Shown here: piece after piece, positions 14,812-41,719 of the stretch
Numbering within the stretch: position 1 is the first letter of the stretch
Layout of the letters: the number at the start of each line of letters is the position of its first letter
From: Patescibacteria group bacterium
Lineage (GTDB): Bacteria > Patescibacteriota > Minisyncoccia > Portnoybacterales > UBA2143
Assembly (NCBI GenBank): GCA_018819085.1
Contig: JAHJQT010000059.1
Coordinates: forward strand, 1 to 51,482
Direction: 5' to 3'
DNA length: 51,482 nucleotides
Program-made: the position numbers and the translations under genes
The notes under the pieces: generated by a model
Seen by the model: only the letters and a program-made list of their open reading frames with translations
What the model was told of the DNA's origin: nothing
Databases searched by the model: none

Positions 14812-14817
14812 AAAAAA

Positions 14818-16916: not shown

Positions 16917-16934
16917 ATTAATTTCTTTAATTAC

Positions 16935-21392: not shown

Positions 21393-22488
21393 TATTTTTC
21401 CTTTGATTTAATGCCATTTGTTCTAATTTAAGATTAGAATTTATTTTAATCTCATGGTTTTTTAATAATTCTTTTTTCTCTCGAACAGACAATAATTTAT
21501 ATTTATAATAACCAAGAGATGCAATCATAGCAGCATTATCAGTACAATAAGATTTTTTAACAGGATATTTAAATTCAAGATTTTGTGCTAAACAATCTTT
21601 ACTTAAAATATTTCTTAAATTGTCATTAGCTGAAATTCCTCCAACAAGATGGACTTCTTTAACTTTTTCTTTCTCTGCTAATTTTAATAGACCATTAGAA
21701 ATTAATTCACCCATAGTTTGTTCAAAACTAGCACATAAATCTGAAATAAACTTTTGTGATAAATTTTTTTTCTTTTTTCTTTTTTCAGAAATAGTTTTAC
21801 TAATTATTTTTTCTATTTTTGAAAAATCAAGTTTTGTTATATCAAAACTACCTATTTCTTTTGTTAAATTAAATTTATTTTTATCCCCCTTTTTAGCATA
21901 ATCAGAAATAACAGGACCACTACTAATAGGTCCACCTATTTTTAAAGCATCCGCTAAATAACTATAAACAGCTCCTATCCCTCTAAAGTTTGGCTTATTT
22001 TTTGATTTTCTTTTCATCGCGTCAATTCTAAAAAGCTCTTTAAATTCAAATTTGTTATTTAATATTTTAATAATGCCACTATGTCCACCCGAAGAACTTA
22101 AAACTAAAATAGGAAAATTAAAATCACTTTGCTCTCTTTCTAGCCAATTAGAAAAATAATGAGCCTCTTGATGATAAACTTGGATTAATGGCTTGTTTAA
22201 AACACTAGCCAAAACTTCTGCCGCTGTTAACCCAATTGAAACATTTGAAAAAAAACTACCAAAATTATTAACCGATATCAAAGAAATATCTTCCATTTTA
22301 CACTTTGATTTTGTCAACGCTCTTTTTATAACTGGCCCAATTTGATTTAAATGTGAATCTACTAAATTATATAATTTATCTGATTTCATTACAGTATGTT
22401 CGTTCACATTAGACAAAACAAATCTACCGTCTTCAACAACAGCTACGCAAACATCATGTAAGATTGTATCTATACCTAAAATTTTCAT
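21382..22488 (-). CDS. Kae1/TsaD (ASKHA-fold, N6-threonylcarbamoyl/carbamoyl transferase) family protein, divergent
   Basis: ILGIDT start, HQEAH metal-binding His pair, SSGGHSG, VGGISAN and CTDNAAMIA motifs in the TsaD order. The usual SCDET segment is replaced. Confidence 0.7.
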   Translation of the reverse strand: MKILGIDTILHDVCVAVVEDGRFVLSNVNEHTVMKSDKLYNLVDSHLNQIGPVIKRALTKSKCKMEDISLISVNNFGSFFSNVSIGLTAAEVLASVLNKPLIQVYHQEAHYFSNWLEREQSDFNFPILVLSSSGGHSGIIKILNNKFEFKELFRIDAMKRKSKNKPNFRGIGAVYSYLADALKIGGPISSGPVISDYAKKGDKNKFNLTKEIGSFDITKLDFSKIEKIISKTISEKRKKKKNLSQKFISDLCASFEQTMGELISNGLLKLAEKEKVKEVHLVGGISANDNLRNILSKDCLAQNLEFKYPVKKSYCTDNAAMIASLGYYKYKLLSVREKKELLKNHEIKINSNLKLEQMALNQRKNNVK

Positions 22489-22494
22489 AAAGAA

Positions 22495-24105
22495 TTATTT
22501 TTCAATTAAATAATCACCAATAGCCAAATAATCCATACTGGAATCATAAAAAGTTTTTAATGCATCTTTAGGACTACAAATAATTGGCTCATCAGCTAAA
22601 TTATAACTTGTGTTTAATAATGCCGGGATGCCTGTTATTTTTTTAAATTCACTAATTAACTTCCAATACTTAAGATTATTCTTTTTATTTACTGTTTGCA
22701 AACGAACTGTATTGTCTACATGAACCGTAGCTAATAAATCTTTTATTTTATTTGGCTTAATATCAAAAGCTAAAATCATAAAAGGTGATTTATAATAATC
22801 TTTAACATATTTTGAGGCATATTCTTCTAATATAGAAGGAGCAAAAGGTCTCCAAGATTCTCTTTTTTTAATACTATTAATCATATCTTTTATCTTTACC
22901 AACGAAGGATTAGCTAATATAGAACGATTACCCAATGCCCTAGGACCAACTTCCATTCTTCCTTGAAACCAGCCAATTATTTTGTTCTGTGCAATTTTTT
23001 CAGCTGTTTCTTTAAAAATATTATTTGAAAAATGATATTTATTAATTTTATATTTCCCTATAGCTTTTTCTATTTCTTGATTATTAAATTCTGGACCCCA
23101 ATAGACATGGTCAAAAATAAAATCTGGACTCTTGTTTGTTTTTTTCACATGAACATATACTGCCGCGCCTAAAGCACTTCCAGTATCATTAGAAGCTGGC
23201 TGAATATAAATATCATGCACATATTTAGATTTTAACAGTATCCCATTCATAGCACAATTAAGTGCTACTCCACCAGATAAACATAAATTACGTGAGCCTG
23301 TTTGATTATATAAATATTTAACAATTTTTAAACCAGCTTTTTCTAAAACAAATTGAACGGTTGCGGCTAAATCTTTATGTTTTTGCGTAATTTTATCAAA
23401 ACAATTTCTTTTTTTTATAGTTGCTAAAAACTTTTTCTTTTTCTCGTAATCAATTTTGGGAATTGGTTTAGCATTCCAATCTATAAAGTTAAATTTTTCC
23501 AAACAGGGTTTACCATAGCTTGATAATCCCATTGTTTTGCCTTCTTGACTATGACCTTTAAAACCTAATAAATTAGTAATCTCTTCATAAAGACAACCCC
23601 AACTTTCTTGATGATTTATTCTATGGAAAATATCTAAATTTAAACCATTCCCATAGCCAATTAAGCCTGATTCTGATTCTCCTGCTTTGTCTAATGAAAT
23701 AATATTTGATTCTTTAAATCCTGATAAATAAAAAGAAGAAGAAATATGTGCTATATGATGATTAACATTTATTACTCTTGGATCATAGAAATCAAACGGC
23801 TGATTCCATTCAAATGATTTGAGTCGAGGTGTTTTTTGTTTAATTTCGTGATTATTAAAATCTATAGACTGATTTATAGCATGATATTTATCATCAAATC
23901 CTACAGCAATATAATCTAAATCTTTCATGCTTAACCCAGCATATTCTAGACAATATTTGGTTGCCTGACAAGCTCCTATGCGTGGCGCATGCTTTTTTCT
24001 AATAAATCGCTCTTCTTCAGCAAATGCCACTAATTTACCATCAATTAACAAACAAGCTGCATTGTTCCAAGAATAGCATGAATGAGTAATACCTAATATT
24101 TTCAT
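22495..24105 (-). CDS. NodU/CmcH-family carbamoyltransferase
   Basis: MKILGITHSCYSWNNAACLLIDGKLVAFAEEERFIRKKH is a family-typical N-terminus. LSGGVALNC motif. 536 aa. Confidence 0.85.
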   Translation of the reverse strand: MKILGITHSCYSWNNAACLLIDGKLVAFAEEERFIRKKHAPRIGACQATKYCLEYAGLSMKDLDYIAVGFDDKYHAINQSIDFNNHEIKQKTPRLKSFEWNQPFDFYDPRVINVNHHIAHISSSFYLSGFKESNIISLDKAGESESGLIGYGNGLNLDIFHRINHQESWGCLYEEITNLLGFKGHSQEGKTMGLSSYGKPCLEKFNFIDWNAKPIPKIDYEKKKKFLATIKKRNCFDKITQKHKDLAATVQFVLEKAGLKIVKYLYNQTGSRNLCLSGGVALNCAMNGILLKSKYVHDIYIQPASNDTGSALGAAVYVHVKKTNKSPDFIFDHVYWGPEFNNQEIEKAIGKYKINKYHFSNNIFKETAEKIAQNKIIGWFQGRMEVGPRALGNRSILANPSLVKIKDMINSIKKRESWRPFAPSILEEYASKYVKDYYKSPFMILAFDIKPNKIKDLLATVHVDNTVRLQTVNKKNNLKYWKLISEFKKITGIPALLNTSYNLADEPIICSPKDALKTFYDSSMDYLAIGDYLIEK

Positions 24106-24791
24106 TTATTTAATTTTTCTTTATTTAAATAATCTTCAACTAATTTAGCTATTTCTTCACTTAAAACACCTGATTGAATCTCACCTTCTCTGATTAATTT
24201 CACTTTATTATTAACTATTTCAATAACTGTTGAAGGTCGACGTTCAGGTAATTTTCCTGCATCCAAGACTATATCAGGTTTTACTTCATGTCCAAAAATC
24301 CCTCTAAAATACTCCATTAACTCTTCTACAGAATAAATATTTTTCAATTCAGAAATATTAGCACTTGTACCAATAACCGGTGTTCTATGAAATTTTGATA
24401 AAGTAGAAGTTACTTTATTAAAAGGAACTCGAAAACCAAGTGTTTTATATCCTAAGTTTAAAAACTCTGGAACTGTTTTATTATTTCTTGGCACTGCGAA
24501 AGTAAATGGTTCTTCAGGAAATTTTTCGGCAATTTTTTTAATTAAAGGATTAAATTTGCCATATTTTGCAATATCGTCAAGACAATAAAGCCCAAGATTA
24601 AATGCTTTTTTTCTATCTCTGTGTTTTGCTTTTTGTACTTTTTTTATTGACTTTAAATTAAAAGCATCACCCACCATTGTGTAAACAGCATCGCCAGGCA
24701 CAATAGCTATTTTACCTTTATTAATCGCATCAGCAACTTTTTTAACAGCTTTAGGATCTGGATTTTTATAATCTATTTTTACAATTTTCAT
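24102..24791 (-). CDS. YrdC/Sua5 (TsaC)-family L-threonylcarbamoyladenylate-synthase-like protein
   Basis: IAIVPGDAVYTMVGDA (PTDTVYGL-type) and IGTSANISE (SAN motif). Single YrdC domain of 229 aa. 4-nt overlap with the carbamoyltransferase gene. Confidence 0.75.
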   Translation of the reverse strand: MKIVKIDYKNPDPKAVKKVADAINKGKIAIVPGDAVYTMVGDAFNLKSIKKVQKAKHRDRKKAFNLGLYCLDDIAKYGKFNPLIKKIAEKFPEEPFTFAVPRNNKTVPEFLNLGYKTLGFRVPFNKVTSTLSKFHRTPVIGTSANISELKNIYSVEELMEYFRGIFGHEVKPDIVLDAGKLPERRPSTVIEIVNNKVKLIREGEIQSGVLSEEIAKLVEDYLNKEKLNK

Positions 24792-24793
24792 AA

Positions 24794-25744
24794 TTATTTT
24801 TTAACTTTTAATAAAGGAAAGTTATATTTATCAAGATAATCATTTTCTATACCACTACAACAATTATTATATTCACAGTTTACGCAATCATCGTTTTTAA
24901 TAAAACATTCTTTAAAATCTCTAATCTGTATTTTTTTTAATTGAAAATCCTTACTAACTTTTAATAATCTTCTTTGTCTTCTTTTTTCGATAGCTGAATC
25001 TTGAAATCTAGGCAAATTATCAATGTAACAAAGAGGAAAATTCCAAAATATTATATTAACACCCAATAAGTTAGCTGTTTTAACTGCTTTTTGTATATAT
25101 TCTTTTATTTTTTTAAAATCAGTTGGTAATGATTTCTTAAGTAAAGATTTTAATGTATCGCCAATATATATTAATCTAAATTCTATATTAATCTTTTTAT
25201 AATCATATTTCTTAAATAATTTATGTAAATATATAATTAAATCAGATAATGATTCTAAGTTATTTTTATTAATAACTAAAATAAGCATTATTGGCAATTT
25301 ATATTTTAAAAAATTTTCTAAGCCAGACATTCTCTTTATTTCGATTTCACTAATAGGTAAATTATTAATAGAGCCAATAATTTTATTATTTCTATCAGAT
25401 GGAAAATAATTTAATGTCTTCTCTAAAAAACTCTTATTATTAAAATGCAAAAGATTTGTTATAATTCTGAATTCTATCTTTTCTTTGTAAAAATAATCAA
25501 GAATTTTAAAAAAATTCTTATGAATAGTAGGCTCTCCTCCTGTAATAATAACATAATCAAGATTAAAATTATTTCTTAAATAATTAAAATTATCTTTTAT
25601 TTCTTTCAATGAAAGATCTTTTAATCCTTTTTTTGTATATTTTCTTTCAATACAAAAATTGCAATCATCATTACAGTTAGCAGTTATTTTAAACAATGCA
25701 GCAACATTTTCTTTTTGGTATTTTATAATCTTTTTTTTATTCAT
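24794..25744 (-). CDS. Radical SAM protein (short family variant, C-terminal 4-Cys motif)
   Basis: CNDDCNFC triad and TGGEPTIHKNF motif. C-terminal FPLC...CVNCEYNNCCSG. Confidence 0.75.
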   Translation of the reverse strand: MNKKKIIKYQKENVAALFKITANCNDDCNFCIERKYTKKGLKDLSLKEIKDNFNYLRNNFNLDYVIITGGEPTIHKNFFKILDYFYKEKIEFRIITNLLHFNNKSFLEKTLNYFPSDRNNKIIGSINNLPISEIEIKRMSGLENFLKYKLPIMLILVINKNNLESLSDLIIYLHKLFKKYDYKKINIEFRLIYIGDTLKSLLKKSLPTDFKKIKEYIQKAVKTANLLGVNIIFWNFPLCYIDNLPRFQDSAIEKRRQRRLLKVSKDFQLKKIQIRDFKECFIKNDDCVNCEYNNCCSGIENDYLDKYNFPLLKVKK

Positions 25745-25750
25745 AAATAC

Positions 25751-27313
25751 TCACCAAATATAATTTTTAACTTTTGAAGAATTCATTAGCGGATCATTAG
25801 CCTTATAACTACCATTAAAAAAATATGCTGAATACCTATCTCCTCCTTTACATTTTTCTAAAAAAGCACATTTCTTACATTCTTTTGGTATATTATTATA
25901 ATTTCTTAATGATTTCATGAAAGAATGATTCCAGCAAGCATTAATATCTAATGGGTCTCCGATATTTTTTTCAATATAATACATCGGTTTGGCAAAACCA
26001 CGTGGATCAATAACAAATCTTTCATGACCATCAACTGATTTAGCCCCTCCACAAACAGCATTTATTTTAATAGGATCATAAGCACAAAAAGGAACAGCAT
26101 TAATTATATGAACTTTTAAAGAATAATTATTCCTAACTATATCTTTTTTAATTTTAATTAATTTTTCTATTAAAAGTGGAATTTCTTTCTTTCCCCAAAT
26201 TATTTTTTCTCCAGGATTGGGTATCACCCGATTAATCATCCATTTATTAATTTTTAACTCTTTGAACAGTTTGTAAAATTTTTCTGAATTCTTAATATTC
26301 TCCATAGTTGCAACTGTACTAACATTAACAATTTTTACTCCTGCTTTTCTGAACCATTTTATAGCTCTTATTTTCTTTTCAAAAGAATTTTCAAATCCAG
26401 TTATTTTCTCATCTTCTTTAGAATTACAAGTATGCATTGAAAAAAGAATATAATCTAAATACTTAGCTATTTCTTTTACTTGTTTATAATCCTTAATTAA
26501 AGAACCATTTGTATTTAATTTAACCTGCAATCCTTTTTCTTTAGCATATTTTATTAAACTAAAAATATTTTTCCTTAATATTGGCTCTCCACCAGTGAAT
26601 CTTACTGCTGATACGCCTGTTTTTTTTAAATTGTCAATTATTTTTTTAATATACAGACTGCTTAGCTCCTTGCCTAATCTGTCTTTTTTAGCAAAACTAA
26701 CACGATTAAAACAAAAATCACATTTAAAATTACATTTATGAGTTACTTCAATTATAACTTCTCGAGGTAATAATTTTGGTTTAATTTTACTTTTGTTTAA
26801 ATTTTTAAGATACCCTTTTAAAATGCCATTGCATTTTTGATTATAAGCGCATAATTTACACTTTTTCAATTTCACAAAATCTTTAAAATTATTACTTTTT
26901 AAAATAAGGCCTTCAGGTTCAGGAATTAAACAATAAGGAAGACCTTCAACTTTAATTATCAAATCAAATAAAAAGACATAACGAGCTTTTGAGATGTAAG
27001 AAGCTACAACATCTAAAGAATCTATTAATTTATCTTTGCTTGGATTAATTAGGTTAAACTGTACTTTTTTGATTCTAAATTTTTTTGCTATTTTTAAAAT
27101 ACCATTTAGTCTAAAATAATTAGAATTTTTGACTTGATTCCCAGTATAAATATCTACACTAAGAACAATATTATCTTTTTTACCTTCTTTAATTAATTCT
27201 TCTATTTTCTGAATAGACTTTTTAAACGTAAAATTATTCTTAACAAAACGCTCATGGATTTCTGAACGATGACCGTATAAATAAATTTTAGAATAATTAT
27301 TTCTTTTTATCAT
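25751..27313 (-). CDS. Two-module radical SAM/SPASM protein (longest of three paralogues)
   Basis: The N-terminal ~180 aa lack a CX3CX2C triad but carry LPYC...CKLCAYNQKCNG. The core has CNFKCDFC and TGGEPILRKN. C-terminal CKKCAFLEKCKGG. The C-terminal half is close to 14818..16170 (DPRGFAKP.YYI.KNIGDPLDINACWNH). Confidence 0.8.
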   Translation of the reverse strand: MIKRNNYSKIYLYGHRSEIHERFVKNNFTFKKSIQKIEELIKEGKKDNIVLSVDIYTGNQVKNSNYFRLNGILKIAKKFRIKKVQFNLINPSKDKLIDSLDVVASYISKARYVFLFDLIIKVEGLPYCLIPEPEGLILKSNNFKDFVKLKKCKLCAYNQKCNGILKGYLKNLNKSKIKPKLLPREVIIEVTHKCNFKCDFCFNRVSFAKKDRLGKELSSLYIKKIIDNLKKTGVSAVRFTGGEPILRKNIFSLIKYAKEKGLQVKLNTNGSLIKDYKQVKEIAKYLDYILFSMHTCNSKEDEKITGFENSFEKKIRAIKWFRKAGVKIVNVSTVATMENIKNSEKFYKLFKELKINKWMINRVIPNPGEKIIWGKKEIPLLIEKLIKIKKDIVRNNYSLKVHIINAVPFCAYDPIKINAVCGGAKSVDGHERFVIDPRGFAKPMYYIEKNIGDPLDINACWNHSFMKSLRNYNNIPKECKKCAFLEKCKGGDRYSAYFFNGSYKANDPLMNSSKVKNYIW

Positions 27314-27319
27314 AAAAAA

Positions 27320-28426
27320 TTATTTTATAATTCTTTTAATAAAATTTATAATATTATTTTTATTACTTGAGAATCCATTATATCTTTCTGAAAAAAGTTT
27401 TATTAAAACATTAATAAGTTTATTAATAATTTTGAACTCGTCTTTTTTGTTAACGCCCAAATAAACAAATTGACCATGTAAATTTTTAATAAATCTTTTT
27501 AGAATCCTGCCTCTACTAGAATTATCTAATTCCTGTCCATCAAAAATTATAAAACTTATTGTTCTGATATGATCGATAATAATATTTAGGTTCTCTTCAA
27601 ATAAATTAATTGAATTATCGTTTATAGATTTAAAATAATCTAATAAAATCTTTTTCAAAGGAAATATTAAAGAAATATCATAAATATTATCCTTATTTTC
27701 TAAAGCCATTAAAAGTCTCTCGAAGCCGAAACCCTCTAAAACAGCTTGATTTCTTGTTCTTTTAAGCTGACCAGTGAATTTGAATTTATAATTAACATGA
27801 GAACCAATTTCAATGTATTTATTTCCAATCTTATAATATATTTCACAACCGGTTGATCCTGGATTATCAATTATACGAGAATAAAATAAATTTCTCTGTC
27901 CAATAGTCCTAAAAATTCTATCTTTACCCAAATGATTAATATAAGTATTATAAAAAATTTCATCTTCTTCTTCTGTTAATTTAATACCTTCAGCCTCACA
28001 AGAATGTAATATAGTCACAAGAATTTTGTTTTTATCTAGTCCAAGAACATTGAACATAAGATTACATAACAATTCAACTGATTTTTCTTTAGATAAATTT
28101 TCAGCTGCTCCAACAGAGCCAAACACTAATAATTCGAAAAAACTAAGATGACGGCTACTAATACCTACATTCTTCGCGTCATTCACTCTTATGCTTCTAT
28201 CTGGCAAAATATAGAAATTATCAATTGGCAAATGAGATTCTTTTTTAAAAACAATAATATCATCAATAATATGATGCGCAGCACTAGGAGAATAAGTATA
28301 ATTAAATCTTGGCTGAATTAAACCAGAAGAAAATTCATTCCTAAAATTTTCTTTTTCTAAAAAATTTTTTATTTTTATCAATAATTTATTATGTTTTAGA
28401 ACTATTTTATCTATATTCATAATCAA
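27320..28426 (-). CDS. Alanyl-tRNA synthetase catalytic-core homologue (class IIc), truncated stand-alone form
   Basis: Co-linear matches to AlaRS core motifs. RVNDAKNVGISSRHLSFFELLVFGSVG matches R.GGKHNDLENVG.T.RHHTFFEMLGNFSFG. STGCEIYY...YIEIGSHVNYKF matches GPCTEIFYD...IEIWNIVFMQF. LEGFGFERLLMALENKDNIYDISLIF matches DTGMGLERIAAVLQ...NYDIDLF. At 368 aa there is no room for tRNA-recognition, editing or C-Ala domains. Confidence 0.6.
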   Translation of the reverse strand: MIMNIDKIVLKHNKLLIKIKNFLEKENFRNEFSSGLIQPRFNYTYSPSAAHHIIDDIIVFKKESHLPIDNFYILPDRSIRVNDAKNVGISSRHLSFFELLVFGSVGAAENLSKEKSVELLCNLMFNVLGLDKNKILVTILHSCEAEGIKLTEEEDEIFYNTYINHLGKDRIFRTIGQRNLFYSRIIDNPGSTGCEIYYKIGNKYIEIGSHVNYKFKFTGQLKRTRNQAVLEGFGFERLLMALENKDNIYDISLIFPLKKILLDYFKSINDNSINLFEENLNIIIDHIRTISFIIFDGQELDNSSRGRILKRFIKNLHGQFVYLGVNKKDEFKIINKLINVLIKLFSERYNGFSSNKNNIINFIKRIIK

Positions 28427-28434
28427 AAATATAA

Positions 28435-29700
28435 TTACTTTTTAAAATAATAGGCAGATTTCATATAATTTTCAAGTAAATAAAGACATTTTGAAAATTG
28501 CGCTTTAGGAATTTTTAATTCATCTCCATCGTAAGTATAATTAATATAATTTTTTTTAAAAAGACTAAATACTGATTCCAATTCTTTTTCTTCTGCCTTA
28601 GTCAGAGGATTATTATCTAAAAATCGACCTAAATTAAATCTACTTAATCTTTTTATACCAGTATATATATTAAAAACAGGATAAATATTAGTTTTTTTAA
28701 AATTATGAAAAATTCTCATCGGAATCATATTTGCGTCTAATAAGAACTTATAAAGTCTCAATCTTTTAAAATTCATTCCTAATCCAAAACGCAAATGACT
28801 TTTAGCCATCAACCCTAAACCCAAAATACTTGGAAAAGCACCTGAGTAACCATTATAGCAAACACTTATTTTAGCATGTTCTATATTTTTCCCTAAACAC
28901 CATTCATCATAAACTTTTTGATATCCTCTTTTTCTTAAAATCTTTTCAAAATATAATAGATCTATTTTTTTCTGATAAGTGCTATAACGATGAATTTTTT
29001 TTCCATAATAATTATTTTCTTGCTGCGCCCTTAATTTATAAAAATGCATTCCATTAGGATGAAAATCAAGCACCTGCTTAAATTCATTCAGTCTATTATT
29101 ACAATATAATAATTCATTTCTAAAGCCATACATTAAGTCAACGGACCAAATAAAATCACTTTCTGCTAAAGTTTTAAGGCAATCAAGAATAACTTTTCTA
29201 GAAGTTCTTCTATTTTCTTGCTTCAAAATATTATCATTAAGCGTTTGAACACCTAATTGAATTTTAGTTACATTATATTTTTTTAACTCTTCTAAATATG
29301 ATTCAAAATCATCACAAGGTAAAATTTCTACAATAAATCTTTCTAAATTATTAAAATCTACTAATTTTTCTAAAGGTTTAATTAATAATTCAGGAGAAAC
29401 CAAATTAGGAGTGCCTCCACCAATATGAACATTCTTAAATTTAAAACCATTTAAAATATCAGCATACAATAAAATTTCTTTATTATAATATTTTAAAAAT
29501 TCATCTGAATTAAATTGATTATATAAACAAGGCTTATAAATGCAAAAATTACAAAAATTTGAACAGAAAGGATAATTAATGTATAAAAGACTATCTTTTC
29601 TTATTTTTTTTAATTCGAGTCTTAATATTTTTTCAATACCCCTACTCTGCTTAAATATGTTTTTAAAATCTTTATCTCTTTTATTAATATTGTTTTTCAT
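28435..29700 (-). CDS. HemN/HemW-like (class C type) radical SAM protein
   Basis: YPFCSNFCNFCIY triad context and HIGGGTPNL motif. 421 aa. Confidence 0.8.
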   Translation of the reverse strand: MKNNINKRDKDFKNIFKQSRGIEKILRLELKKIRKDSLLYINYPFCSNFCNFCIYKPCLYNQFNSDEFLKYYNKEILLYADILNGFKFKNVHIGGGTPNLVSPELLIKPLEKLVDFNNLERFIVEILPCDDFESYLEELKKYNVTKIQLGVQTLNDNILKQENRRTSRKVILDCLKTLAESDFIWSVDLMYGFRNELLYCNNRLNEFKQVLDFHPNGMHFYKLRAQQENNYYGKKIHRYSTYQKKIDLLYFEKILRKRGYQKVYDEWCLGKNIEHAKISVCYNGYSGAFPSILGLGLMAKSHLRFGLGMNFKRLRLYKFLLDANMIPMRIFHNFKKTNIYPVFNIYTGIKRLSRFNLGRFLDNNPLTKAEEKELESVFSLFKKNYINYTYDGDELKIPKAQFSKCLYLLENYMKSAYYFKK

Positions 29701-29709
29701 AAAATGAAA

Positions 29710-30807
29710 CTATAAAATTTTACTTTCTGGAGATCTACGACAGCATCTTTGACAGACATAAAACAATCCATTATTTTTTATTTCATTGAAAAGTTTTTTT
29801 GCTCTCTGACCATTTAATATTTCTTCTAATGGCATTTTTTTTATATTACCAAGATAATAAAAAGAAATACTACATCCAGGGAATACATCTCCATTTTGAT
29901 CTATCCTTATTTGTTTAAAAACATTAGGACAACTATTAATTTTATGGCAACCATCAGAAAACCATTTTTTATACTTTTTGTCTGAATCAAAATCAGGAAA
30001 AAATAATACACGCATTCTAGATTTTTCAGATAATTTTCTTTTTATTAAATTAATTTTTCTTACAACTTCATTTATTTCTTTTTTATTAAGCTTGCCTAAT
30101 TTATTATCTAATCCCTCTATTAATTTTGCTCGCTCTTCATAAACATTAAATCTTTCATGAAATTCATTAACGCATTTATCTATAATTAAAGAATTTGACC
30201 ATTGTGCCAACGAAAAAGAAAGTACATCGCATTTAACATCTTCAGCTAAAGACAAAACACTATCAAAAGATCCTACATTTAATTTATTTATTACAGTATT
30301 AATAGCTAATAAGGGAAGGTAAAAATTAATATTTTCTTTCATTATTTGTAATTTTTTAATGCTTTCTAATGTTCTATTAAAGTTTCCATTACCTCTATTG
30401 GCATCGTGATCAACAGAATTTCCATCTATGGAAAACATTAAAGCAGAAGTTTGATTTTTAATTAATTCCGAAAAAATCTTTTTGTCATTATGTGTTCCAT
30501 TTGTAAATATCATTAATTTAACTTTTTGTTTTTTTGCATGTTTCAATATATTAAAAATATTAGGATTTAAAAATGGCTCCCCACCAGATAAATTAATCGT
30601 AATATCATTATAATCTTCAAATCGCTTCAATTGTTCTACCAGCTTTTTAAAAAGTTCAAAAGTGAAATTACAACTCTTATTATTAAAAAAAGATATCTTT
30701 TTTTCTTTAATGCCTGTTAAAAAACATGTCTTACATTTTAAATTACATAAGTTTGTTGTTTCAATAGTAATTTTTTCTAAATAATTATTCAAAAATTTTA
30801 ATTTCAT
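29710..30807 (-). CDS. Radical SAM/SPASM-domain protein (possible HxsC counterpart)
   Basis: CNLKCKTC triad and SGGEPFLNPN motif. C-terminal Cys-rich region CPNVFKQIRIDQNGDVFPGC...CQRCC. The HxsC idea rests only on size and context. Confidence 0.75.
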   Translation of the reverse strand: MKLKFLNNYLEKITIETTNLCNLKCKTCFLTGIKEKKISFFNNKSCNFTFELFKKLVEQLKRFEDYNDITINLSGGEPFLNPNIFNILKHAKKQKVKLMIFTNGTHNDKKIFSELIKNQTSALMFSIDGNSVDHDANRGNGNFNRTLESIKKLQIMKENINFYLPLLAINTVINKLNVGSFDSVLSLAEDVKCDVLSFSLAQWSNSLIIDKCVNEFHERFNVYEERAKLIEGLDNKLGKLNKKEINEVVRKINLIKRKLSEKSRMRVLFFPDFDSDKKYKKWFSDGCHKINSCPNVFKQIRIDQNGDVFPGCSISFYYLGNIKKMPLEEILNGQRAKKLFNEIKNNGLFYVCQRCCRRSPESKIL

Positions 30808-30813
30808 ATTTTT

Positions 30814-31872
30814 TTATTTTTCACTTAAAATATTATTACAATAGTGTTTATAATACCAGAAACTAGGCAATACAGAGATAAATTTCTGTTGTTTTGTAAA
30901 AATACTTTTATATTTTCCTCTTACTGCAACCATAGCAGCATTATCTCCACAAAACTCTTTTTTTAATGGTGCTTTGAAAACAATTTTATTTTTAACAGCA
31001 ATATTTTTTATTTTATCTTTAAAAATAGAATTAGCAGAAACACCACCAACTAAATGCATTTCTTTAACCTTATAATCTTTAGCAATTTTTAAGAATTCTT
31101 GTCCTAATAAATTAAAGATATAATCTAAAAAACTAAAAGATAAATTTCTTTGAAAATTCTCATTTAATAAATTTTTTCTATATTTTGAGTAAATTTTTTC
31201 AATTGCCTTATTTGTATCTAAAATTATTAACGTATTTTTATTTCGTTTAATTCTTATTTCGTTTAATTCAGGAATTTCTATTTTTTTTCCTCTTTTAGCA
31301 AGATCAGAAAGCATATTTCCACCATCACCAGTTTTTATAATCTTAATTCTCATTCCATGGCAAAATACATCAAAAAGTGCTGCAATTCCATTAAAAGAAT
31401 TTTTTTTAGAATCCCATACTATGGAAATTAACTTATTAATTTTTTTGTGACTTTCCTGATAATATATAGCTGTATGAGCACCAGAGACGCTTAAACCAAG
31501 AATAGGAAATTTGAATTCTTTTTCTTGTCTTTCGAGCCAATTTGAATAAAGATGTGCAATTTCATGATCAATGCCTATGATTTTCTTTTTTTTAGAATAA
31601 CCTAAAATACAAGCAGCTGTAACACCTATTGGAAGAGATTGAAATGTACCCTTTTTATTAATAACTGAGATTAATTTAATTTTGTTCCATGTGTTATCAG
31701 GCAATAAATTTAAAAGATCTACCAAATTTTTTATATGAGCACTAAAAAATCTATCAGCATCTTGATCATAAAGATCTATACTTATAGATTTGTTAAATTT
31801 AACTTTATTATTATTATCAATTAAAGCTAATCCAGTAGTATGAAATGTTGTGTCAATACCTAAAAATAACAT
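30814..31872 (-). CDS. Second divergent Kae1/TsaD-family protein
   Basis: FLGIDTT start, DHEIAH His pair, SVSGAHT, VGGVSAN and CGDNAAMVA motifs. It is the first gene after the hairpin at 31913-31940. Confidence 0.65.
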   Translation of the reverse strand: MLFLGIDTTFHTTGLALIDNNNKVKFNKSISIDLYDQDADRFFSAHIKNLVDLLNLLPDNTWNKIKLISVINKKGTFQSLPIGVTAACILGYSKKKKIIGIDHEIAHLYSNWLERQEKEFKFPILGLSVSGAHTAIYYQESHKKINKLISIVWDSKKNSFNGIAALFDVFCHGMRIKIIKTGDGGNMLSDLAKRGKKIEIPELNEIRIKRNKNTLIILDTNKAIEKIYSKYRKNLLNENFQRNLSFSFLDYIFNLLGQEFLKIAKDYKVKEMHLVGGVSANSIFKDKIKNIAVKNKIVFKAPLKKEFCGDNAAMVAVRGKYKSIFTKQQKFISVLPSFWYYKHYCNNILSEK

Positions 31873-31910
31873 ATAAAATCATTATATCAAATTATTTACT
31901 TTATTTACAT

Positions 31911-31942
31911 ACAAAAACAACCTATCAATAGGTTGTTTTTTG
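31911..31942 (-). terminator. Intrinsic-terminator-like hairpin between the repeat-protein operon and the enzyme operon
   Basis: Arms aaaaacaacctat (31913-31925) and ataggttgttttt (31928-31940) are perfectly complementary. They are flanked by A/T runs, so a U-tract follows on either strand. The hairpin lies 22 nt downstream of the stop of 31962..32954. Confidence 0.55.
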
Positions 31943-31961
31943 AAAATAAATATTAAAAAAA

Positions 31962-32954
31962 TTATTTATTATATTCTTCAGAATAAAATTCACACATTAA
32001 ATTTTTAGCTTGATTATGAAATATTTCACAATCTTCATATTTTTTCAGTTCACATTCTTTTGTTCCATTAAACCCAAAATCTTTACAATTTATATAATCC
32101 AAACTCATCACATAATGTTTACATTTTTCTTTTGAATCTAAATCTGGAATAGAATCACATAATTCTAAAGCTAATTCTTTATCACCAACACGAAAAGCCA
32201 AAGATGATCTCATCAAAAATTGAACACTTAATAAATCAACATCGTTTGACCATGGAAACTCTATATTATCTTTCTCAAAATTAGACCAATCATTGCTATA
32301 TCTAATAATATTTTCGCATAGACTATTACATCTACGTTCTGCTTCATTAAACACTTCTTTAGAAAGTTTATTTCTTCTTTCTGGTAATAATGCTCCTGAA
32401 TTTAAACAAATTTCTAAAAAATAATCTGTTATTTTATTATTTGGACATATTTTTTCTATAGGCATTAAAGCAATGCCATTAGCATATTCATATTGAACAC
32501 TTAATAATCCTATCTTATTATTATTTTCATCATATCTATTAAGTATTGCACCTAATGAATCTATGCTTAGAATATATTCCTTTGTATAATCTGAAATTTT
32601 TAATTCTTGAATTAAAGATGTTGTTCTTTTATATAATTCATTAAATATATGTTTATCAAAATCTTCTCTATAATTAATTAATTCACATGATAAATACCGT
32701 ACCATTTCAAAATTAATCATTTCTAATTCCTTATCTGTAAAAAAATTTGAATTATTTATTTCTTTTATAAATTTCTCATCACTCATTTTATTAACTTTTT
32801 CTAAGCAATTTGATTTAATTTCTAATTTTGTTGTGTCTGAAGAATTATTAAAAAAATTATATTTTTCTTGCGAATATAAAAAACTGGCCAATAAACCAAC
32901 CATTAATAAAACAACTATTAATATAAATAATAATATTTTATTTTTTAAATTCAT
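31962..32954 (-). CDS. Membrane-anchored Cys-rich hypothetical protein
   Basis: N-terminal hydrophobic helix ILLFILIVVLLMVGLLASFLY followed by a ~300-aa domain with many Cys residues. It starts 11 nt after the stop of the His-Xaa-Ser ORF. Confidence 0.6.
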   Translation of the reverse strand: MNLKNKILLFILIVVLLMVGLLASFLYSQEKYNFFNNSSDTTKLEIKSNCLEKVNKMSDEKFIKEINNSNFFTDKELEMINFEMVRYLSCELINYREDFDKHIFNELYKRTTSLIQELKISDYTKEYILSIDSLGAILNRYDENNNKIGLLSVQYEYANGIALMPIEKICPNNKITDYFLEICLNSGALLPERRNKLSKEVFNEAERRCNSLCENIIRYSNDWSNFEKDNIEFPWSNDVDLLSVQFLMRSSLAFRVGDKELALELCDSIPDLDSKEKCKHYVMSLDYINCKDFGFNGTKECELKKYEDCEIFHNQAKNLMCEFYSEEYNK

Positions 32955-32965
32955 AAATTTTATAT

Positions 32966-33406
32966 TTAATATGACGAATGAGAGCCATGGGATCCGTGTG
33001 AACTATGTGAGCCATGGGATCCGTGTGAGCCATGTGAACCATGGGAACCATGTGAACCGTGGGAACCATGTGAACCGTGGGAACCATGTGAGCCGTGGGA
33101 ACCATGTGAGCCGTGGGAACCATGTGAGCCGTGGGAACCATGTGAGCCGTGAGAGCTATGGGAACCATGAGAAGAATGGGAACCATGAGAACTGTGAGAG
33201 CTATGGGATCCATGAGAGCTGTGAGAGGCATGAGTACAAGCTGCTGAAGCTGGATCTGCTTTCATTGCTCCAGCTAGACCAACACCTAAGGCCACAAAAG
33301 TTAATGCTATTTTAGCAACACTTTTTTTATTGATTCTTCCTTCTTCACTCGTTAAAAAAGCCTTGATATCTTTTTTAATCTGAGGTATTTTTATTTTTTT
33401 TATCAT
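32966..33406 (-). CDS. His-Xaa-Ser repeat protein (HxsA-like candidate radical SAM substrate)
   Basis: The 58-aa N-terminal part has a hydrophobic stretch and an ASA site. It is followed by ~29 consecutive H-[GSA]-S triplets and a terminal Tyr. It is the longest of three frames open across the repeat, and the only one with a plausible N-terminal domain and operon fit. Confidence 0.75.
   Translation of the reverse strand: MIKKIKIPQIKKDIKAFLTSEEGRINKKSVAKIALTFVALGVGLAGAMKADPASAACTHASHSSHGSHSSHSSHGSHSSHGSHSSHGSHGSHGSHGSHGSHGSHGSHGSHGSHGSHGSHGSHGSHGSHGSHGSHSSHGSHGSHSSY
32972..33232. repeat. Coding tandem repeat (9-nt His-Xaa-Ser unit, with a core of near-perfect 18-nt units)
   Basis: Visible units ccatgtgaaccgtgggaa and ccatgtgagccgtgggaa repeat head-to-tail between ~33030 and ~33150. 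Degenerate copies flank this core. Confidence 0.9.
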
Positions 33407-33456
33407 TGAATGATTAATCTAATATTACAAAACAGAAGCAGTTTTTACTTTTTTTA

Positions 33457-33465
33457 ATTATAACA
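33457..33465 (-). promoter_or_regulatory. Candidate extended -10 element (TGTTATAAT) upstream of the His-Xaa-Ser ORF
   Basis: The reverse complement of 33457-33465 reads TGTTATAAT, ~50 nt upstream of the ATG at 33406. No convincing -35 was found. TATAAT-like strings are common in DNA this AT-rich. Confidence 0.25.
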
Positions 33466-33520
33466 AATAAAATAGATAAAGGATAGATTGCATGTGGATA
33501 ATTATTATTGAAAATTTAAA

Positions 33521-33560
33521 CAGCCAGAGGAAAATTTTCTCCTGGCTGTTATTTTTTTTG
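33521..33560 (-). terminator. Hairpin downstream of the lipoprotein gene
   Basis: cagccag (33521-33527) pairs with ctggctg (33542-33548), with further imperfect pairing. T/A runs lie on both sides, and the T-run is actually stronger on the plus strand. Confidence 0.35.
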
Positions 33561-33571
33561 CTTGAAAATAT

Positions 33572-34225
33572 TTAAGATGGGGTATCTCCTCCTGAACGTG
33601 GCCGAGACCTATCTCGCGGATCAACGTCTCCCTTGAAATAAATGTTAAACGTCGACTCAATTATGAGCCACTTCCCATTTTGATTTACTAAATGAAGTTC
33701 TTTAGTTAACCAAAGGAGATCCCCTCCTTCAGCAGAGATTGATGCTACAGCATCAACCTCTGCTGTTAACCCGTTAACTTCGATTTCGAAAGATTCGTAT
33801 TTTACAAATCCTGCCGCCTCAAATGCGGCTGGAAACATCTTCGTGTAAACCATCTTTGTCACAATTCGTTGTTCTCGCCCAACCATAATTTTCGCTTCTG
33901 AGTGGAATAATGAAAGATATCCCACCACGTCCCTCTTATTCCATGTCTGCTCAGACTTAAACAAAACTTCTCTAACTAAGTCTTTCGCTCCTGTTGTGAT
34001 AGAAGAAGTGGGAGTAGTTACAATGATGGGCCCAGAATCACGAGCTGGATTATAGACAGCGTTAGAACTAATGTTTCCAGCACCTCCAGAAGAAGGACCT
34101 CCGCTCCTAATTTGAATATTCATTCCGGCTACTGAATAGCCACCAATGAGATGTTCACCACCACATGCCGTAAGAAACGTTCCTACAGCTACTATTGTCA
34201 TTACTATCATTAGATTCTTTCTCAT
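33572..34225 (-). CDS. Lipoprotein with NTF2/SnoaL-like C-terminal domain; compositionally foreign
   Basis: Lipobox in MRKNLMIVMTIVAVGTFLTAC-GG. Strong SD (AGGAGGAAAAATC before the ATG). Clearly higher G+C than both neighbours. The NTF2-like call is a weak impression from the C-terminal half. Confidence 0.7.
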   Translation of the reverse strand: MRKNLMIVMTIVAVGTFLTACGGEHLIGGYSVAGMNIQIRSGGPSSGGAGNISSNAVYNPARDSGPIIVTTPTSSITTGAKDLVREVLFKSEQTWNKRDVVGYLSLFHSEAKIMVGREQRIVTKMVYTKMFPAAFEAAGFVKYESFEIEVNGLTAEVDAVASISAEGGDLLWLTKELHLVNQNGKWLIIESTFNIYFKGDVDPRDRSRPRSGGDTPS

Positions 34226-34321
34226 GATTTTTCCTCCTTGATTTACAGATTTCAGTTAACTAAAAATATATAAAAATTGTGAAAAAACTATACTTATGTT
34301 GATAAAATAGCATACTGGCTA

Positions 34322-35770
34322 TCACTTGTCAAGCCATTTTTTGAAAATTTCTTTTATTTTTGGATCTTGCAATTTTTCAAATAAGAAAGAAATCATAGCT
34401 TTATTGATCTTACATCTTTCATTGGTTGGCATTTGTCCAAAAATATTTCCTTGTTCAGCATAATTATAAATAGGACAGATTCCACAATATGGCTTATAAG
34501 CACAATCATCACATCCAGCTAAACCATCAAGACAAGAAGCAGTACATAAAGTTCTCACTATTGGATTTCCAACTATTTCCTGATATGTATTTTCTTTAAC
34601 ATTTCCTAAACAAAAACTTTCATCGTTCATCATACTCATCATTCTTCCCTCATCGCAAGTATAGACATTACCGTTATAATTATAAGCTAATTGACCTATT
34701 CCTGCTCCACAAGGAGATCTAAAATCTAAATGGTTAGGATCTTTTTCAGTTAAAATTTTCTTTAAAAAAGTTACAGCTGCTTTTTCTCTAACTTTTTTTC
34801 CTTTAAGATTTAATCCTATAATATACGAAAGAGCATTTTTGTAAAAATTAATATATTCATCAGCTGTATAGCCTATTTTTTTAAAACTTTCTTTAAGAAG
34901 TCCAAAAGGATTTAATGGTCTTCCTAAATAAAAATCATCAAAACCTAATTTTATATACTCATCAACTATTTCCTTATAATAAGACAGAGAGAAACGACTT
35001 ATGGTTACAGATAGTCCTATTTTGAAAATATACCCTTTTTTTCTTAATTGCGGATATAATTTAAAAAATTTCTTAGACCATTTAGTTGCATAATAATAGC
35101 TATTACCCTTAACCATTGGACGATTCTTATTATGAACTTTTTCAGGACCATCTATAGAAACACAAAAACTGACATTTTTATCAAGCAAATACTTAAATTT
35201 TTCCTCGGTCATTAATGAAAAGTTGGAAACTAGTCTAATCTCTAAATCTTTTTTAGCCTTTTTATTCTTTTTATAAGCTTCTTCTATGATAAATTTAACT
35301 ATTGGCCAATTTACTAATGGCTCGCCTCCTTGAAATTCAATAGCAACAAAAGGACTTGTTGTTTGAAATATTTTTTCAACAACATTTTTAGCTGTTTCTT
35401 TATCCATATCTAAATCAGTCCTGTCCATTGCTTGAGCGCTAGCATGACAATAAACACATTTATGATTACATCTTAAGGTGACAACAACAATATGCAAACT
35501 TGGACCATTGAATAAAAAAGAATTTTTTAAACGATATTTATCTATTGATTCTGTTAAATCTAAATCTTTTTTAATAAAACTCTTTTTATTTAAGGATAAA
35601 TATGGTTCTTTGTCTTTTTCTAAATTATCAGATAAAAAATCTTTAAATTCTTTTTTTGTTAAAAATAAAAAACCACCAACATCATTTGTTAAAAGATATT
35701 TATCTTTTATTTTTTTAAAACGAAAAAATCCAAGCTTATTATATTTAATTTTTTTTAAGTCAGATAACAT
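34322..35770 (-). CDS. Radical SAM/SPASM maturase, anSME-like architecture (HxsB-like)
   Basis: CNHKCVYC triad and FQGGEPLVNW motif. SPASM region CGAGIGQLAYNYNGNVYTCDEGR...CDDCAYKPYCGICP. N-terminal FRFKKIKDKYLLTNDVGGFLFLTKKEFKDFL extension. 482 aa. Confidence 0.85.
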   Translation of the reverse strand: MLSDLKKIKYNKLGFFRFKKIKDKYLLTNDVGGFLFLTKKEFKDFLSDNLEKDKEPYLSLNKKSFIKKDLDLTESIDKYRLKNSFLFNGPSLHIVVVTLRCNHKCVYCHASAQAMDRTDLDMDKETAKNVVEKIFQTTSPFVAIEFQGGEPLVNWPIVKFIIEEAYKKNKKAKKDLEIRLVSNFSLMTEEKFKYLLDKNVSFCVSIDGPEKVHNKNRPMVKGNSYYYATKWSKKFFKLYPQLRKKGYIFKIGLSVTISRFSLSYYKEIVDEYIKLGFDDFYLGRPLNPFGLLKESFKKIGYTADEYINFYKNALSYIIGLNLKGKKVREKAAVTFLKKILTEKDPNHLDFRSPCGAGIGQLAYNYNGNVYTCDEGRMMSMMNDESFCLGNVKENTYQEIVGNPIVRTLCTASCLDGLAGCDDCAYKPYCGICPIYNYAEQGNIFGQMPTNERCKINKAMISFLFEKLQDPKIKEIFKKWLDK

Positions 35771-35777
35771 TTTTAAT

Positions 35778-36044
35778 TTATGACCTCATTAAAAAAAAGA
35801 CGTAATTACAAAACTCGTCTTTAATTATTTTTTCAACGCTTTTGTCAATATTGCTCAATTCTACCTGAATATATTTTTTTGTTTTCTTAAAGCTAAAATC
35901 AGCTAAATTATTATATTCTTTTATAGCTGATTTTATTGATTTAAGATTATATAAGTTTTTATTAAAACTAATCAGTATTCTCTCTTTTTTGTTACGCTGT
36001 TTTCCTGTTTTGTTTTTTGATTGTTTTTTCTGTTTTTTCACCAT
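35778..36044 (-). CDS. Small HxsD-like domain protein (second copy)
   Basis: The ORF track gives a TTG start at 36068. I prefer the ATG at 36042-36044 (MVKKQKK...). The C-terminal part ILISFNKNLYNLKSIKSAIKEY...IIKDEFCNYVFFLMR is co-linear with the upstream HxsD-like ORF. It overlaps that ORF by ~50 nt. Confidence 0.4.
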   Translation of the reverse strand: MVKKQKKQSKNKTGKQRNKKERILISFNKNLYNLKSIKSAIKEYNNLADFSFKKTKKYIQVELSNIDKSVEKIIKDEFCNYVFFLMRS

Positions 36045-36429
36045 ATTTGTCTTCCCATGGTATAGCAATACCTAAAGGATCATCTTCGTATTTTACTTCA
36101 TCCTCCTTATTAACTTGATCATCTCCAAAAGCTGAAAACAATGCCTGACTAATAATATACTCCCTTATTTTCCTATTATTCTTAGATAAATTAATTCTGA
36201 CAGTATAATTTAAAAGTTCATTCAAAAACTCGCCTTTAAGATTTTTTAATTGCTTTTCGTTTAATTTATTTTTTCCTTTTAAAGATACCTCTATTTTTCT
36301 AGATGATTTATTATCTAAAAATAAATATGCTTTATCAAGAAAAACATAAGCTGCTCCATAAAGAGCTTCCTTAGGATAATTCTGAAGATCAAAAACAAAC
36401 CTTATAGTATTATTTCTTAAATCTACCAT
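35992..36429 (-). CDS. HxsD-like protein
   Basis: EFLNELLNYTVRINL resembles the LLNDYxLRE signature that, as I recall, names the HxsD family model. It lies immediately upstream of the HxsB-like rSAM. Confidence 0.5.
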   Translation of the reverse strand: MVDLRNNTIRFVFDLQNYPKEALYGAAYVFLDKAYLFLDNKSSRKIEVSLKGKNKLNEKQLKNLKGEFLNELLNYTVRINLSKNNRKIREYIISQALFSAFGDDQVNKEDEVKYEDDPLGIAIPWEDKYGEKTEKTIKKQNRKTA

Positions 36430-38091: not shown

Positions 38092-38103
38092 CTCTAAAAA
38101 CTA

Positions 38104-38553: not shown

Positions 38554-38611
38554 CTTTTTCACCCCCTTTCGTTTAAATATAATTTTAATATTCAATACTT
38601 AATTCCGACCT

Positions 38612-39817: not shown

Positions 39818-39832
39818 ATTATATTAATTAAT

Positions 39833-41276: not shown

Positions 41277-41296
41277 AATCTATAATAATTTAATAT

Positions 41297-41713: not shown

Positions 41714-41719
41714 ATTTTA

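Follow-up and report, generated by a model that had tools for sequence, protein, structure and literature searches.

Stand-alone paralogues of aminoacyl-tRNA synthetase (aaRS) cores have repeatedly proved to be new enzymes, such as the amino acid:carrier-protein ligases, the EF-P lysylase, GluQRS and AcmF. The SerRS-like amino acid:carrier-protein ligases, PoxA/EpmA, GluQRS, HisZ and AsnA are stand-alone synthetase cores with adenylate chemistry or ligand binding and with non-tRNA or non-canonical acceptors, and all of them derive from synthetases other than alanyl-tRNA synthetase (AlaRS). The only characterised truncated AlaRS-like enzyme is AcmF, an aminoacyl-tRNA-dependent transferase of ascamycin biosynthesis in Streptomyces, which is reported to have lost most of the ATP-binding and alanine-activating residues, depends on an acidic residue, Glu232, in the place of AlaRS Asp235, and is encoded next to a canonical AlaRS, AcmD (PMC12945691). 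Here we describe an AlaRS-like gene at positions 27320..28426 (-) of contig JAHJQT010000059.1 from a Patescibacteria group bacterium; the whole contig, 51,482 nt long, is called the window below. The gene lies in an operon for a His-Xaa-Ser (HxS) repeat protein. While AcmF gave up ATP chemistry, the encoded protein belongs to a clade that keeps the ATP/Mg site and swaps the alanine-specific contacts, which predicts a new substrate specificity.

The described operons closest to the one in the window are the HXS systems, in which four genes (HxsABCD) provide anti-phage defence and HxsA, matured by radical S-adenosylmethionine (SAM) enzymes, blocks the entry of phage DNA, an activity known only from the E. 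coli-type four-gene system; 99.7% of the canonical systems are found in Pseudomonadota (PMC13128918). These consist of four genes, have five repeats and a peptidoglycan-binding domain in the E. coli-type HxsA, and contain no AlaRS-like gene (PMC13128918). The operon in the window resembles them in encoding HxsA4 and HxsB proteins that pass curated models and a probable HxsD-like component. By contrast, it has ~29 repeats and 14 radical SAM genes, and includes TsaD, Sua5, carbamoyltransferase, ATP-grasp and decarboxylase genes along with the AlaRS-like gene. It is a rare expanded variant outside Pseudomonadota, and brings the HXS system, only recently characterised as a defence system, to bacteria of the candidate phyla with a much more elaborate gene content.

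The AlaRS-like gene is a complete open reading frame (ORF) in the middle of the contig. It ends with a stop codon at 27320-27322 and starts either with TTG at 28426 (368 aa) or with ATG at 28420 (366 aa); the identical database protein, P0001, starts at this ATG, two codons further in. The GC content of the gene, ~0.23-0.25, is like that of the adjoining genes. The ORF is a complete stand-alone paralogue of the AlaRS catalytic core, homologous to it along the full length. In the Pfam scan, residues 77-364 matched positions 62-352 of the 552-position profile PF01411 (E=6e-27, 94.8 bits against a cutoff of 30.3); this was the sole domain, and neither the editing domain PF07973 nor C-Ala was found at E<=0.1, as the preliminary description of this DNA had anticipated. 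A sequence search of PDB returned AlaRS only; the bacterial type scored best, the enzymes of A. aeolicus and E. coli having E-values from 1e-16 to 4e-18, and archaeal AlaRS were far weaker. The profile of the family, aligned by hhalign to 54 canonical AlaRS, matched residues 9-365 to AlaRS residues 2-362 with 100% probability and E=3.5e-43. The AlphaFold2 (AF2) model built from the family alignment (pLDDT 87.2, pTM 0.89) was similar to the catalytic fragments of E. coli, A. aeolicus and human AlaRS (Foldseek, TMq 0.74-0.79). All this agrees with the three co-linear blocks of the AlaRS class II core that had been recognised from the sequence in a truncated stand-alone protein.

The protein has two domains. 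Residues ~1-245 (27692..28426, (-)) form the class II aminoacylation-type domain with motif 2 Arg80, FFE at residues 96-98, Glu195, Glu206 and motif 3, as delimited by hhalign, secondary structure and conservation. The FFE motif is present in the form quoted earlier, LSFFELLVFGSVG, which spans residues 94-106. Residues ~246-368 (27323..27691, (-)), IIIDHIRTISFIIFDGQELDNSSRGRILKRFIKNL, form a helical domain homologous to one half of the tRNA-recognition domain of AlaRS, the first (ATL/Mid1), according to the alignment to AlaRS and the AF2 helices; this helical half has been named the ATL domain (bioRxiv 10.1101/2023.05.29.542759). It contains ADHIR...FxxxDG, the conserved residues D285, R288, F292 and D296, a Lys-rich helix aligning with an AlaRS helix, and an Asn (N302) aligned to the Asn of the PSN motif, at a position that is variable across the family. 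The second, Asp-bearing recognition subdomain is missing, as the match stops at profile position 352 of 552, or AlaRS residue ~362; in AlaRS, this Asn and this Asp read the G3:U70 pair. The preliminary description considered the domains for tRNA recognition and for editing, and C-Ala, all absent. This stands for the editing domain, C-Ala and the second recognition subdomain, but the recognition domain is represented by its first half, which is helical. Compared to the AlaRS fragments of E. coli (3HXU) and A. aeolicus (1RIQ), the protein has the same fold over its full length and shares the Arg of motif 2, FFE, both Mg-binding Glu, GxGxER and ADHxR...DG. Still, it is only 20-25% identical to bacterial AlaRS, lacks the Mid2/cradle-loop-barrel, editing and C-Ala domains, and has replacements at M43, W170, W211, N212, F215, D235 and T236.

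A search of 5.8 billion proteins yielded 29 relatives of 355-373 aa with 46-90% identity, followed by a large gap to a 598-aa small-AlaRS at 27%. The 23 full-length members of this family have 59 invariant columns and a mean identity of 65%. To describe the active site, we compared these 23 proteins, 54 canonical AlaRS and 67 other short relatives, using an E. coli AlaRS sequence purely as a numbering ruler, with its motifs checked against the consensus of the 54 database AlaRS. The ATP/Mg site (equivalents of Arg69, Phe90, Glu183, Glu209, Gly239, Glu241 and Arg242) is invariant in all 23 family members, and is found in 61-67 of the 67 other short paralogues and 53-54 of the 54 canonical enzymes. 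In particular, Arg80 (28187..28189, (-)), the counterpart of the motif 2 Arg69, is invariant in the family, in all paralogues and in canonical AlaRS. In motif 3, G232-F-G-F-E-R237 (27716..27733, (-); G237-M-G-L-E-R242 in AlaRS), no family member departs from G232, G234, E236 or R237.

The alanine pocket is different. Its signature in the family is H-F-G-S-V-N-L-E/Q-G, as opposed to M-W-W-N-V-F-D-T-G in canonical AlaRS. Asp235, which binds the alpha-ammonium group, is replaced by Leu230 (27737..27739, (-)), with Leu, Ile or Pro in 23 of 23 family members and mostly Gly or Ala in the wider set of paralogues. Asn212 is replaced by Ser209 (27800..27802, (-)), which is invariant in the family and is Ser or Thr in most paralogues, and Met43 by His51 (28274..28276, (-)), an invariant residue that serves as the signature of the entire paralogue clade. 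Likewise, Trp170 corresponds to Phe181/Tyr182, Trp211 to Gly208, Phe215 to Asn212, and Thr236 to Glu, Gln or Phe. From the alanine-pocket set M43, W170, N212, V214, D235 and G237, whose canonical residues are seen in 47-54 of the 54 reference enzymes, only the Val (V211) and the Gly (G232) are retained. The Asn and Asp at the N212 and D235 positions are critical for aminoacyl-AMP formation, according to the review of AcmF (PMC12945691). We considered Glu231 as a shifted stand-in for Asp235 and rejected it: other members have Gln or Phe at this position and the L095 copy has Ala, and, not being conserved, Glu231 cannot take over the lost role of Asp.

The combination of an invariant ATP site with an altered yet conserved pocket argues for a changed substrate and a new specificity under purifying selection rather than decay. 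The earlier suggestion that the protein activates Ala, Ser or Gly does not hold for activation in the canonical manner, given Leu, Ile or Pro in place of Asp235, Ser in place of Asn212, the loss of both W170 and W211, and the invariant His in place of M43. Modelling the structure and inspecting the amino-acid pocket, as then proposed, gave a split outcome: the AF2 model has the AlaRS fold, but the aligned pocket residues are not of the alanine type.

The family is part of a larger group. In a hidden Markov model search of 1.84 billion cluster representatives, 46 matches had E-values below 1e-30, and dozens more proteins of 350-375 aa ranked above canonical AlaRS against the full-length profile. 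Beyond the focal family, ~55 clusters have His at position 43, Ser or Thr at 212 and Gly or Ala at 235; a few short proteins have a wholly canonical pocket. In the distance tree, 83 His-type sequences fall into one clade of 89 tips, separate from canonical AlaRS; below, "~89 clusters" refers to this His-type clade of stand-alone paralogues of 350-375 aa. Its members are metagenomic proteins, nameless or generically named. In the searchable literature, we met the term "AlaRS-like" only in the AcmF review and found no description of an AlaRS-derived core paralogue with an intact ATP site; the His-type clade is apparently a separate, coherent and undescribed family. The current annotations, "alanyl-tRNA synthetase" or "alanine--tRNA ligase-related", could lead to reduced genomes being wrongly credited with an AlaRS.

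Other architectures occur among more distant relatives with different pocket signatures, which represent other subgroups. P0122 (430 aa) combines a MerR helix-turn-helix (HTH) domain with an AlaRS-type core, P0191 (538 aa) has the core and a YbaK-type aminoacyl-tRNA editing domain, and P0091 and P0094 (~1450-1490 aa) consist of tandem AlaRS N-domains, GAF and a histidine-kinase ATPase. P0077 and P0118 were rejected as informative fusions, being tandem or extended near-canonical AlaRS N-domains. Five stand-alone AlaRS-like proteins of 405-421 aa (P0080, P0100, P0124, P0146 and P0159) have the signature L/M/F-W/L-S/A-N-L-F/L/S-E-S/T-V, in which Asp235 is replaced by Glu and Gly237 by Val. By these residues they look like candidates for AcmF-like aminoacyl-tRNA-dependent transferases, nearer to AcmF than the focal family is.

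The family is rare. A peptide-pattern scan of GTDB found true members in 2 of 185,579 species genomes, the other 50 loci being ordinary alaS genes of Clostridia. One member comes from a Patescibacteria metagenome-assembled genome, and a homologue of the radical SAM gene adjoining the AlaRS-like gene is annotated as Candidatus Portnoybacteria. The subfamily with 43-49% identity is found on archaeal-looking contigs, one of them binned as Methanosarcinales and another (L074) carrying EF-2-like and S7-like genes. Most family members are stand-alone genes in housekeeping neighbourhoods that differ by locus: in a Patescibacteria genome, with EF-G on one side and EF-Tu on the other; behind SecDF and a gene for tRNA-Leu, with TyrRS and PheRS close by; in the order S15, NYN, AlaRS-like gene, PNPase; after ThyX and NYN; and next to a glycosyltransferase and H+-PPase. 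At all seven loci of the 43-49% subfamily (L003, L004, L009, L010/L073, L013 and L074), a gene for a TrmB-family HTH regulator (242-245 aa, 57-83% identical between loci) lies upstream of the family gene and is divergent from it; in L074 the other neighbour is the EF-2-like gene. All-against-all BLAST of neighbours gave no universal partner gene, the only repeated ones being this regulator in one subfamily and NYN proteins at two loci. No tRNA gene recurred beside family members, and PADLOC did not assign the AlaRS-like protein to any defence system.

Near the AlaRS-like gene of L009, region 4561..12049 contains two further truncated class II synthetase-like genes with tRNA-synt_2 (378 aa) and tRNA-synt_2b (362 aa) domains, only a few kb away. 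Genes for an S66 peptidase, a methyltransferase, a ketoacyl synthase, a ketoreductase (KR) and an HD protein accompany them, and the region may hold an aaRS-like biosynthetic cassette of its own. We searched for a second AlaRS gene by tblastn with small-AlaRS, and found none in the 51-kb window or at 12 family loci, apart from a weak relative in L004. The latter (11109..12410, (-)) encodes a 433-aa protein, is convergent to the family gene, matches PF01411 positions 1-130 with E=6e-5 and is 26% identical to the window protein over 230 aa; the same genome may therefore have two paralogues of the AlaRS core, this one being the more divergent. The 899-aa ORF at 1518..4217 of the window was considered as a genuine alaS and rejected, since it encodes a PKD/Ig-domain protein.

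In contrast to these scattered contexts, the slot in the HxS operon is fixed. As had been noted from the sequence, the AlaRS-like gene is embedded in the HxS cluster, and this arrangement is kept in four diverged genomes. Directly upstream is a HemN/HemW-like radical SAM gene (28435..29700, (-); 8-nt gap in the window, 11-nt overlap in L007), and directly downstream a 520-aa radical SAM gene (25751..27313, (-); 6-nt gap), both pairings being kept in 4 of 4 clusters. The conserved block further includes, all on the minus strand, genes for a 330-aa protein without a family match (31962..32954; 58% identity in L007 and 36% in L095), a TsaD/Kae1-like protein that is below the TsaD equivalog cutoff (30814..31872), a radical SAM/SPASM protein (29710..30807), a 316-aa radical SAM protein (24794..25744) and a Sua5/TsaC-like protein of the threonylcarbamoyl-AMP synthase family (24102..24791; 122.5 bits against a cutoff of 123.2). 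The order common to the four contigs is 330-aa protein, TsaD-like, radical SAM/SPASM, HemN-like radical SAM, AlaRS-like, 520-aa radical SAM, 316-aa radical SAM, Sua5-like. These contigs are the window, L093/L094 (AlaRS-like protein 90% identical), L095 (72%) and L007 (70%), and the junctions between genes are tight or overlapping. Neighbouring genes of the cluster are 36-97% identical between contigs, and the AlaRS-like gene is equally well kept (70-90%). In the distance tree, the four cluster copies form a clade nested in the family, with stand-alone genes of the candidate phyla radiation (CPR) as the sister group. The most economical history would be that a pre-existing stand-alone gene was recruited into the operon. 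The proposal that a truncated aaRS paralogue was recruited to a biosynthetic cluster is supported by the membership in the HxS cluster in four genomes, but calls for a qualification, as the family is not cluster-specific and is mostly found in housekeeping contexts.

Our tentative reading, with a probability of about 45%, is that the protein is an adenylate-forming enzyme whose carboxylate substrate would not be held by the alpha-ammonium/Asp contact, and that in this clade the acyl group would be transferred to an acceptor tied to HxsA4 maturation. Judging by residue conservation, the protein would bind ATP-Mg and make an acyl-adenylate. As there is no alpha-ammonium/Asp contact, the substrate would be a carboxylate other than canonically bound Ala, Gly or Ser. 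The acyl group would then be handed to an acceptor, and the fixed slot in the HxsA4/HxsB/HxsD operon makes the HxS-repeat protein or a pathway intermediate the most likely product or acceptor in this organism. More speculatively, either of the operon's two orphan transferases with the TsaD/Kae1 fold may receive the adenylate; the operon would have three makers of adenylates (the Sua5-like protein, the adenylate-forming domain of the carbamoyltransferase and the AlaRS-like protein) and three Kae1-fold users of acyl-adenylates (two TsaD-like proteins and the Kae1-like domain of the carbamoyltransferase). There is a precedent for an AlaRS core activating a non-amino acid, as human AARS1 is reported to be a lactyltransferase acting via lactyl-AMP (PMC11093599, PMC13578339). 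A bolder extension, possible and yet doubtful, is that the ~89 His-type clusters represent a hitherto unrecognised class of enzymes that adenylate a small non-amino carboxylate, perhaps lactate, pyruvate or another 2-hydroxy or 2-oxo acid, and attach the acyl group to a macromolecule; in the clade of the window, this chemistry would modify an HxS-repeat effector that serves at the cell surface or in defence, together with the TsaD/Kae1-fold transferases. The fixed operon slot provides an experimental handle, since the acyl group could appear as a mass shift on HxsA4.

Several observations weigh against an adenylate-forming role in HxsA4 maturation. Neither the substrate nor the acceptor can be read from the sequence. 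Most members are outside biosynthetic clusters, which implies that the core function of the family is independent of the Hxs genes. Moreover, the pocket residues are nearly identical in cluster and non-cluster members, which would mean that one chemistry serves in both settings or that the place in the operon is in part a matter of chance. The retained tRNA-binding helical domain and the YbaK-type editing fusion in P0191 would suit a tRNA-linked role. Finally, the window and L095 share flanking pilus genes (in L095 the same pilus genes lie upstream of the cluster); this means that at least these two hosts have a common background, and part of the synteny could reflect inheritance and not selection.

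A tRNA-linked role could take the form of a translation-related housekeeping paralogue, comparable to GluQRS or PoxA, that places a non-alanine acyl group on the tRNA 3' end, a modified base or a translation factor, the Hxs operon slot then resulting from operon mixing in a compact genome or from secondary use. The acceptor-stem-binding helical subdomain, retained with D285/R288/F292/D296 and the Lys-rich helix, would fit such a role, and so would the P0191 fusion and the neighbourhoods with EF-G/EF-Tu, with EF-2-like and S7-like genes (L074), with S15/NYN/PNPase, and with SecDF and tRNA-Leu near TyrRS/PheRS. We nevertheless regard it as unlikely: the family as a whole has neither a recurrent neighbour nor a recurrent tRNA gene, the second recognition subdomain and C-Ala, both used by AlaRS for tRNA binding, are missing, the TrmB-linked subfamily does not conserve the PSN-aligned Asn, the great rarity of the family would be odd for a core translation function, and the Hxs operon slot is kept in four genomes. 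The helical subdomain is also compatible with an AcmF-like transferase, which would form no adenylate and would move an aminoacyl group from housekeeping-made Ala-tRNA or another aminoacyl-tRNA to the HxS protein or an intermediate. AcmF, which we set apart by its published description (PMC12945691) and not by sequence comparison, resembles the window protein in being a truncated AlaRS paralogue with only the aminoacylation- and tRNA-recognition-type domains (the window protein has half of the latter), in forming its own clade apart from housekeeping AlaRS, in being encoded in a biosynthetic cluster, and in having both the Asn212 and Asp235 positions substituted. The active sites differ, as the window family has the full ATP/Mg site, including an invariant motif 3 Arg, and has lost only the alanine-binding residues, while AcmF is reported to have lost most of the former and needs Glu232 to hold the alanyl amine at the position where the family has Leu, Ile or Pro (PMC12945691). 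The window protein is also shorter, lacking the second recognition subdomain; its family occurs mostly outside clusters and has no partner AlaRS nearby, with no AcmD-type gene in the window or at the cluster loci; and the separate group of 405-421 aa with D235E looks nearer to AcmF. Such a transferase is hence distinctly unlikely for the focal family.

The fusions of remote relatives to MerR HTH (P0122) or to GAF and histidine-kinase ATPase (P0091 and P0094), together with the divergent TrmB-family regulator of the 43-49% subfamily, would fit a pseudo-synthetase of the HisZ kind, which would have no catalytic activity and would act as a ligand sensor or a regulatory subunit, binding ATP and/or a small metabolite and controlling a partner, for instance a transcription factor or a radical SAM enzyme. 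But the fused proteins fall into other subgroups, whose pocket signatures differ, and the strict invariance of both Mg-binding Glu and both class-defining Arg over the ~89 clusters goes beyond the needs of nucleotide sensing, which makes a sensor improbable, even more so than an AcmF-like enzyme. Finally, it is barely conceivable that the gene is a genuine minimal or split AlaRS, the only one in the organism, or a fragment produced by mis-assembly. Small-AlaRS forms are indeed known in CPR and DPANN (bioRxiv 10.1101/2023.05.29.542759), that is, in the same kinds of organisms, and have a similarly short motif 2 loop, and the window has no further alaS. However, those proteins comprise the catalytic, ATL and editing domains in ~600 aa, while the window family lacks the editing domain; P0030, P0093 and P0192 carry PF07973, P0030 and P0192 have the canonical signature MWWNVFDTG, and CPR-type small-AlaRS such as P0030 thus retain the complete canonical pocket. 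In the window protein, W170, N212, F215 and D235, invariant in 53-54 of 54 canonical AlaRS, are replaced, and V214 alone is kept. The scores are far below the alaS equivalog cutoffs (TIGR00344, 101.8 bits against 457; NF002436, 64.9 against 529). The smallest AlaRS with demonstrated activity, Tupanvirus TuAlaRS, has 461 aa, conserved motifs 1-3, the whole tRNA-recognition domain and a canonical pocket, and charges tRNA-Ala; the window protein is ~100 aa shorter, with a non-canonical pocket. The presence of the gene in only two GTDB species genomes also speaks against an AlaRS. An assembly artefact, named in the preliminary description as an alternative in the form of a broken alaS, is excluded by the complete mid-contig ORF and by ~30 orthologues of the same length in independent assemblies.

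The remaining genes of the operon belong to one same-strand array (6572..36429, (-)) of ~30 genes, including 14 radical SAM ORFs, several of them mutually paralogous (starts at 6572, 7501, 9825, 10691, 12564, 13447, 14818, 16935, 17911, 24794, 25751, 28435, 29710 and 34322, all (-)). This radical SAM cluster is unusually large for a Patescibacteria bacterium with a probably small genome. The HxsA4 His-Xaa-Ser repeat protein (32966..33406, (-); 146 aa; NF038313, 108.8 bits against a cutoff of 55) has an N-terminal hydrophobic segment followed by ~29 H-x-S repeats, mostly SHG or SHS. HxsB is a radical SAM/SPASM maturase (34322..35770, (-); TIGR03978, 531.7 bits against 370). The probable HxsD (35992..36429, (-)) is 60% identical to an L095 protein annotated with PF27806 (HxsD), and had no match in the Pfam copy used. 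The candidate for HxsC, the 520-aa radical SAM protein at 25751..27313, has only a weak HxsC4 match (NF038332, 62 bits against 500). Further along the array, also on the minus strand, are genes for a NodU/TobZ-type carbamoyltransferase with a Kae1-like N-terminal domain and Carbam_trans_C (22495..24105), a second TsaD/Kae1-like protein below the TsaD equivalog cutoffs (21382..22488), an ATP-grasp ligase (20151-21392) and a pyridoxal phosphate-dependent decarboxylase of the diaminopimelate/ornithine type (18887-20161), and the array also encodes a short-chain dehydrogenase/reductase (SDR) and PKD/Ig proteins. The presence of two TsaD/Kae1-like proteins, a Sua5/TsaC-like protein and a NodU/TobZ-type protein in a peptide-maturation operon suggests (threonyl)carbamoyl-adenylate chemistry on a non-tRNA target.

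Amino acid:[carrier protein] ligases have a dedicated carrier encoded next to them, and there is none beside the AlaRS-like gene of the window. The stand-alone acyl carrier protein (47886..48137), which is the only PP-binding protein, is encoded on the opposite strand ~19 kb away, in a different GC context and beside two tRNA-Ser genes (48222..48308, GCT; 48332..48422, TGA), which are the sole Rfam matches in the window. The decision of the preliminary description not to link the two was therefore sound.

Several minor features were observed in the rest of the window and in one related contig. A 160-aa ORF antisense to hxsA4 (32833..33315, (+)) has a repetitive translation (GNHV/SRGNHV) and is very likely a repeat artefact. 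In L095, a run of N (scaffold gap) at ~5900..6800 lies inside the HxS repeat array of hxsA. The window is AT-rich, and type IV pilus/type II secretion system (T2SS) genes are found on both flanks of the array (468..5287 and 37255..45985), encoding pilins with N-methyl motifs, a prepilin peptidase, PilM/PilO, two T2SSE, T2SSF and a response regulator. The array ends with two large PKD/Ig-domain proteins (1518..5287). In the terminal region, 46000..51482, which is unrelated to the cluster, the genes switch to the other strand and the GC content, ~0.25 before, goes up to 0.31-0.40; genes for a major facilitator superfamily (MFS) transporter and a methyltransferase are also located there.

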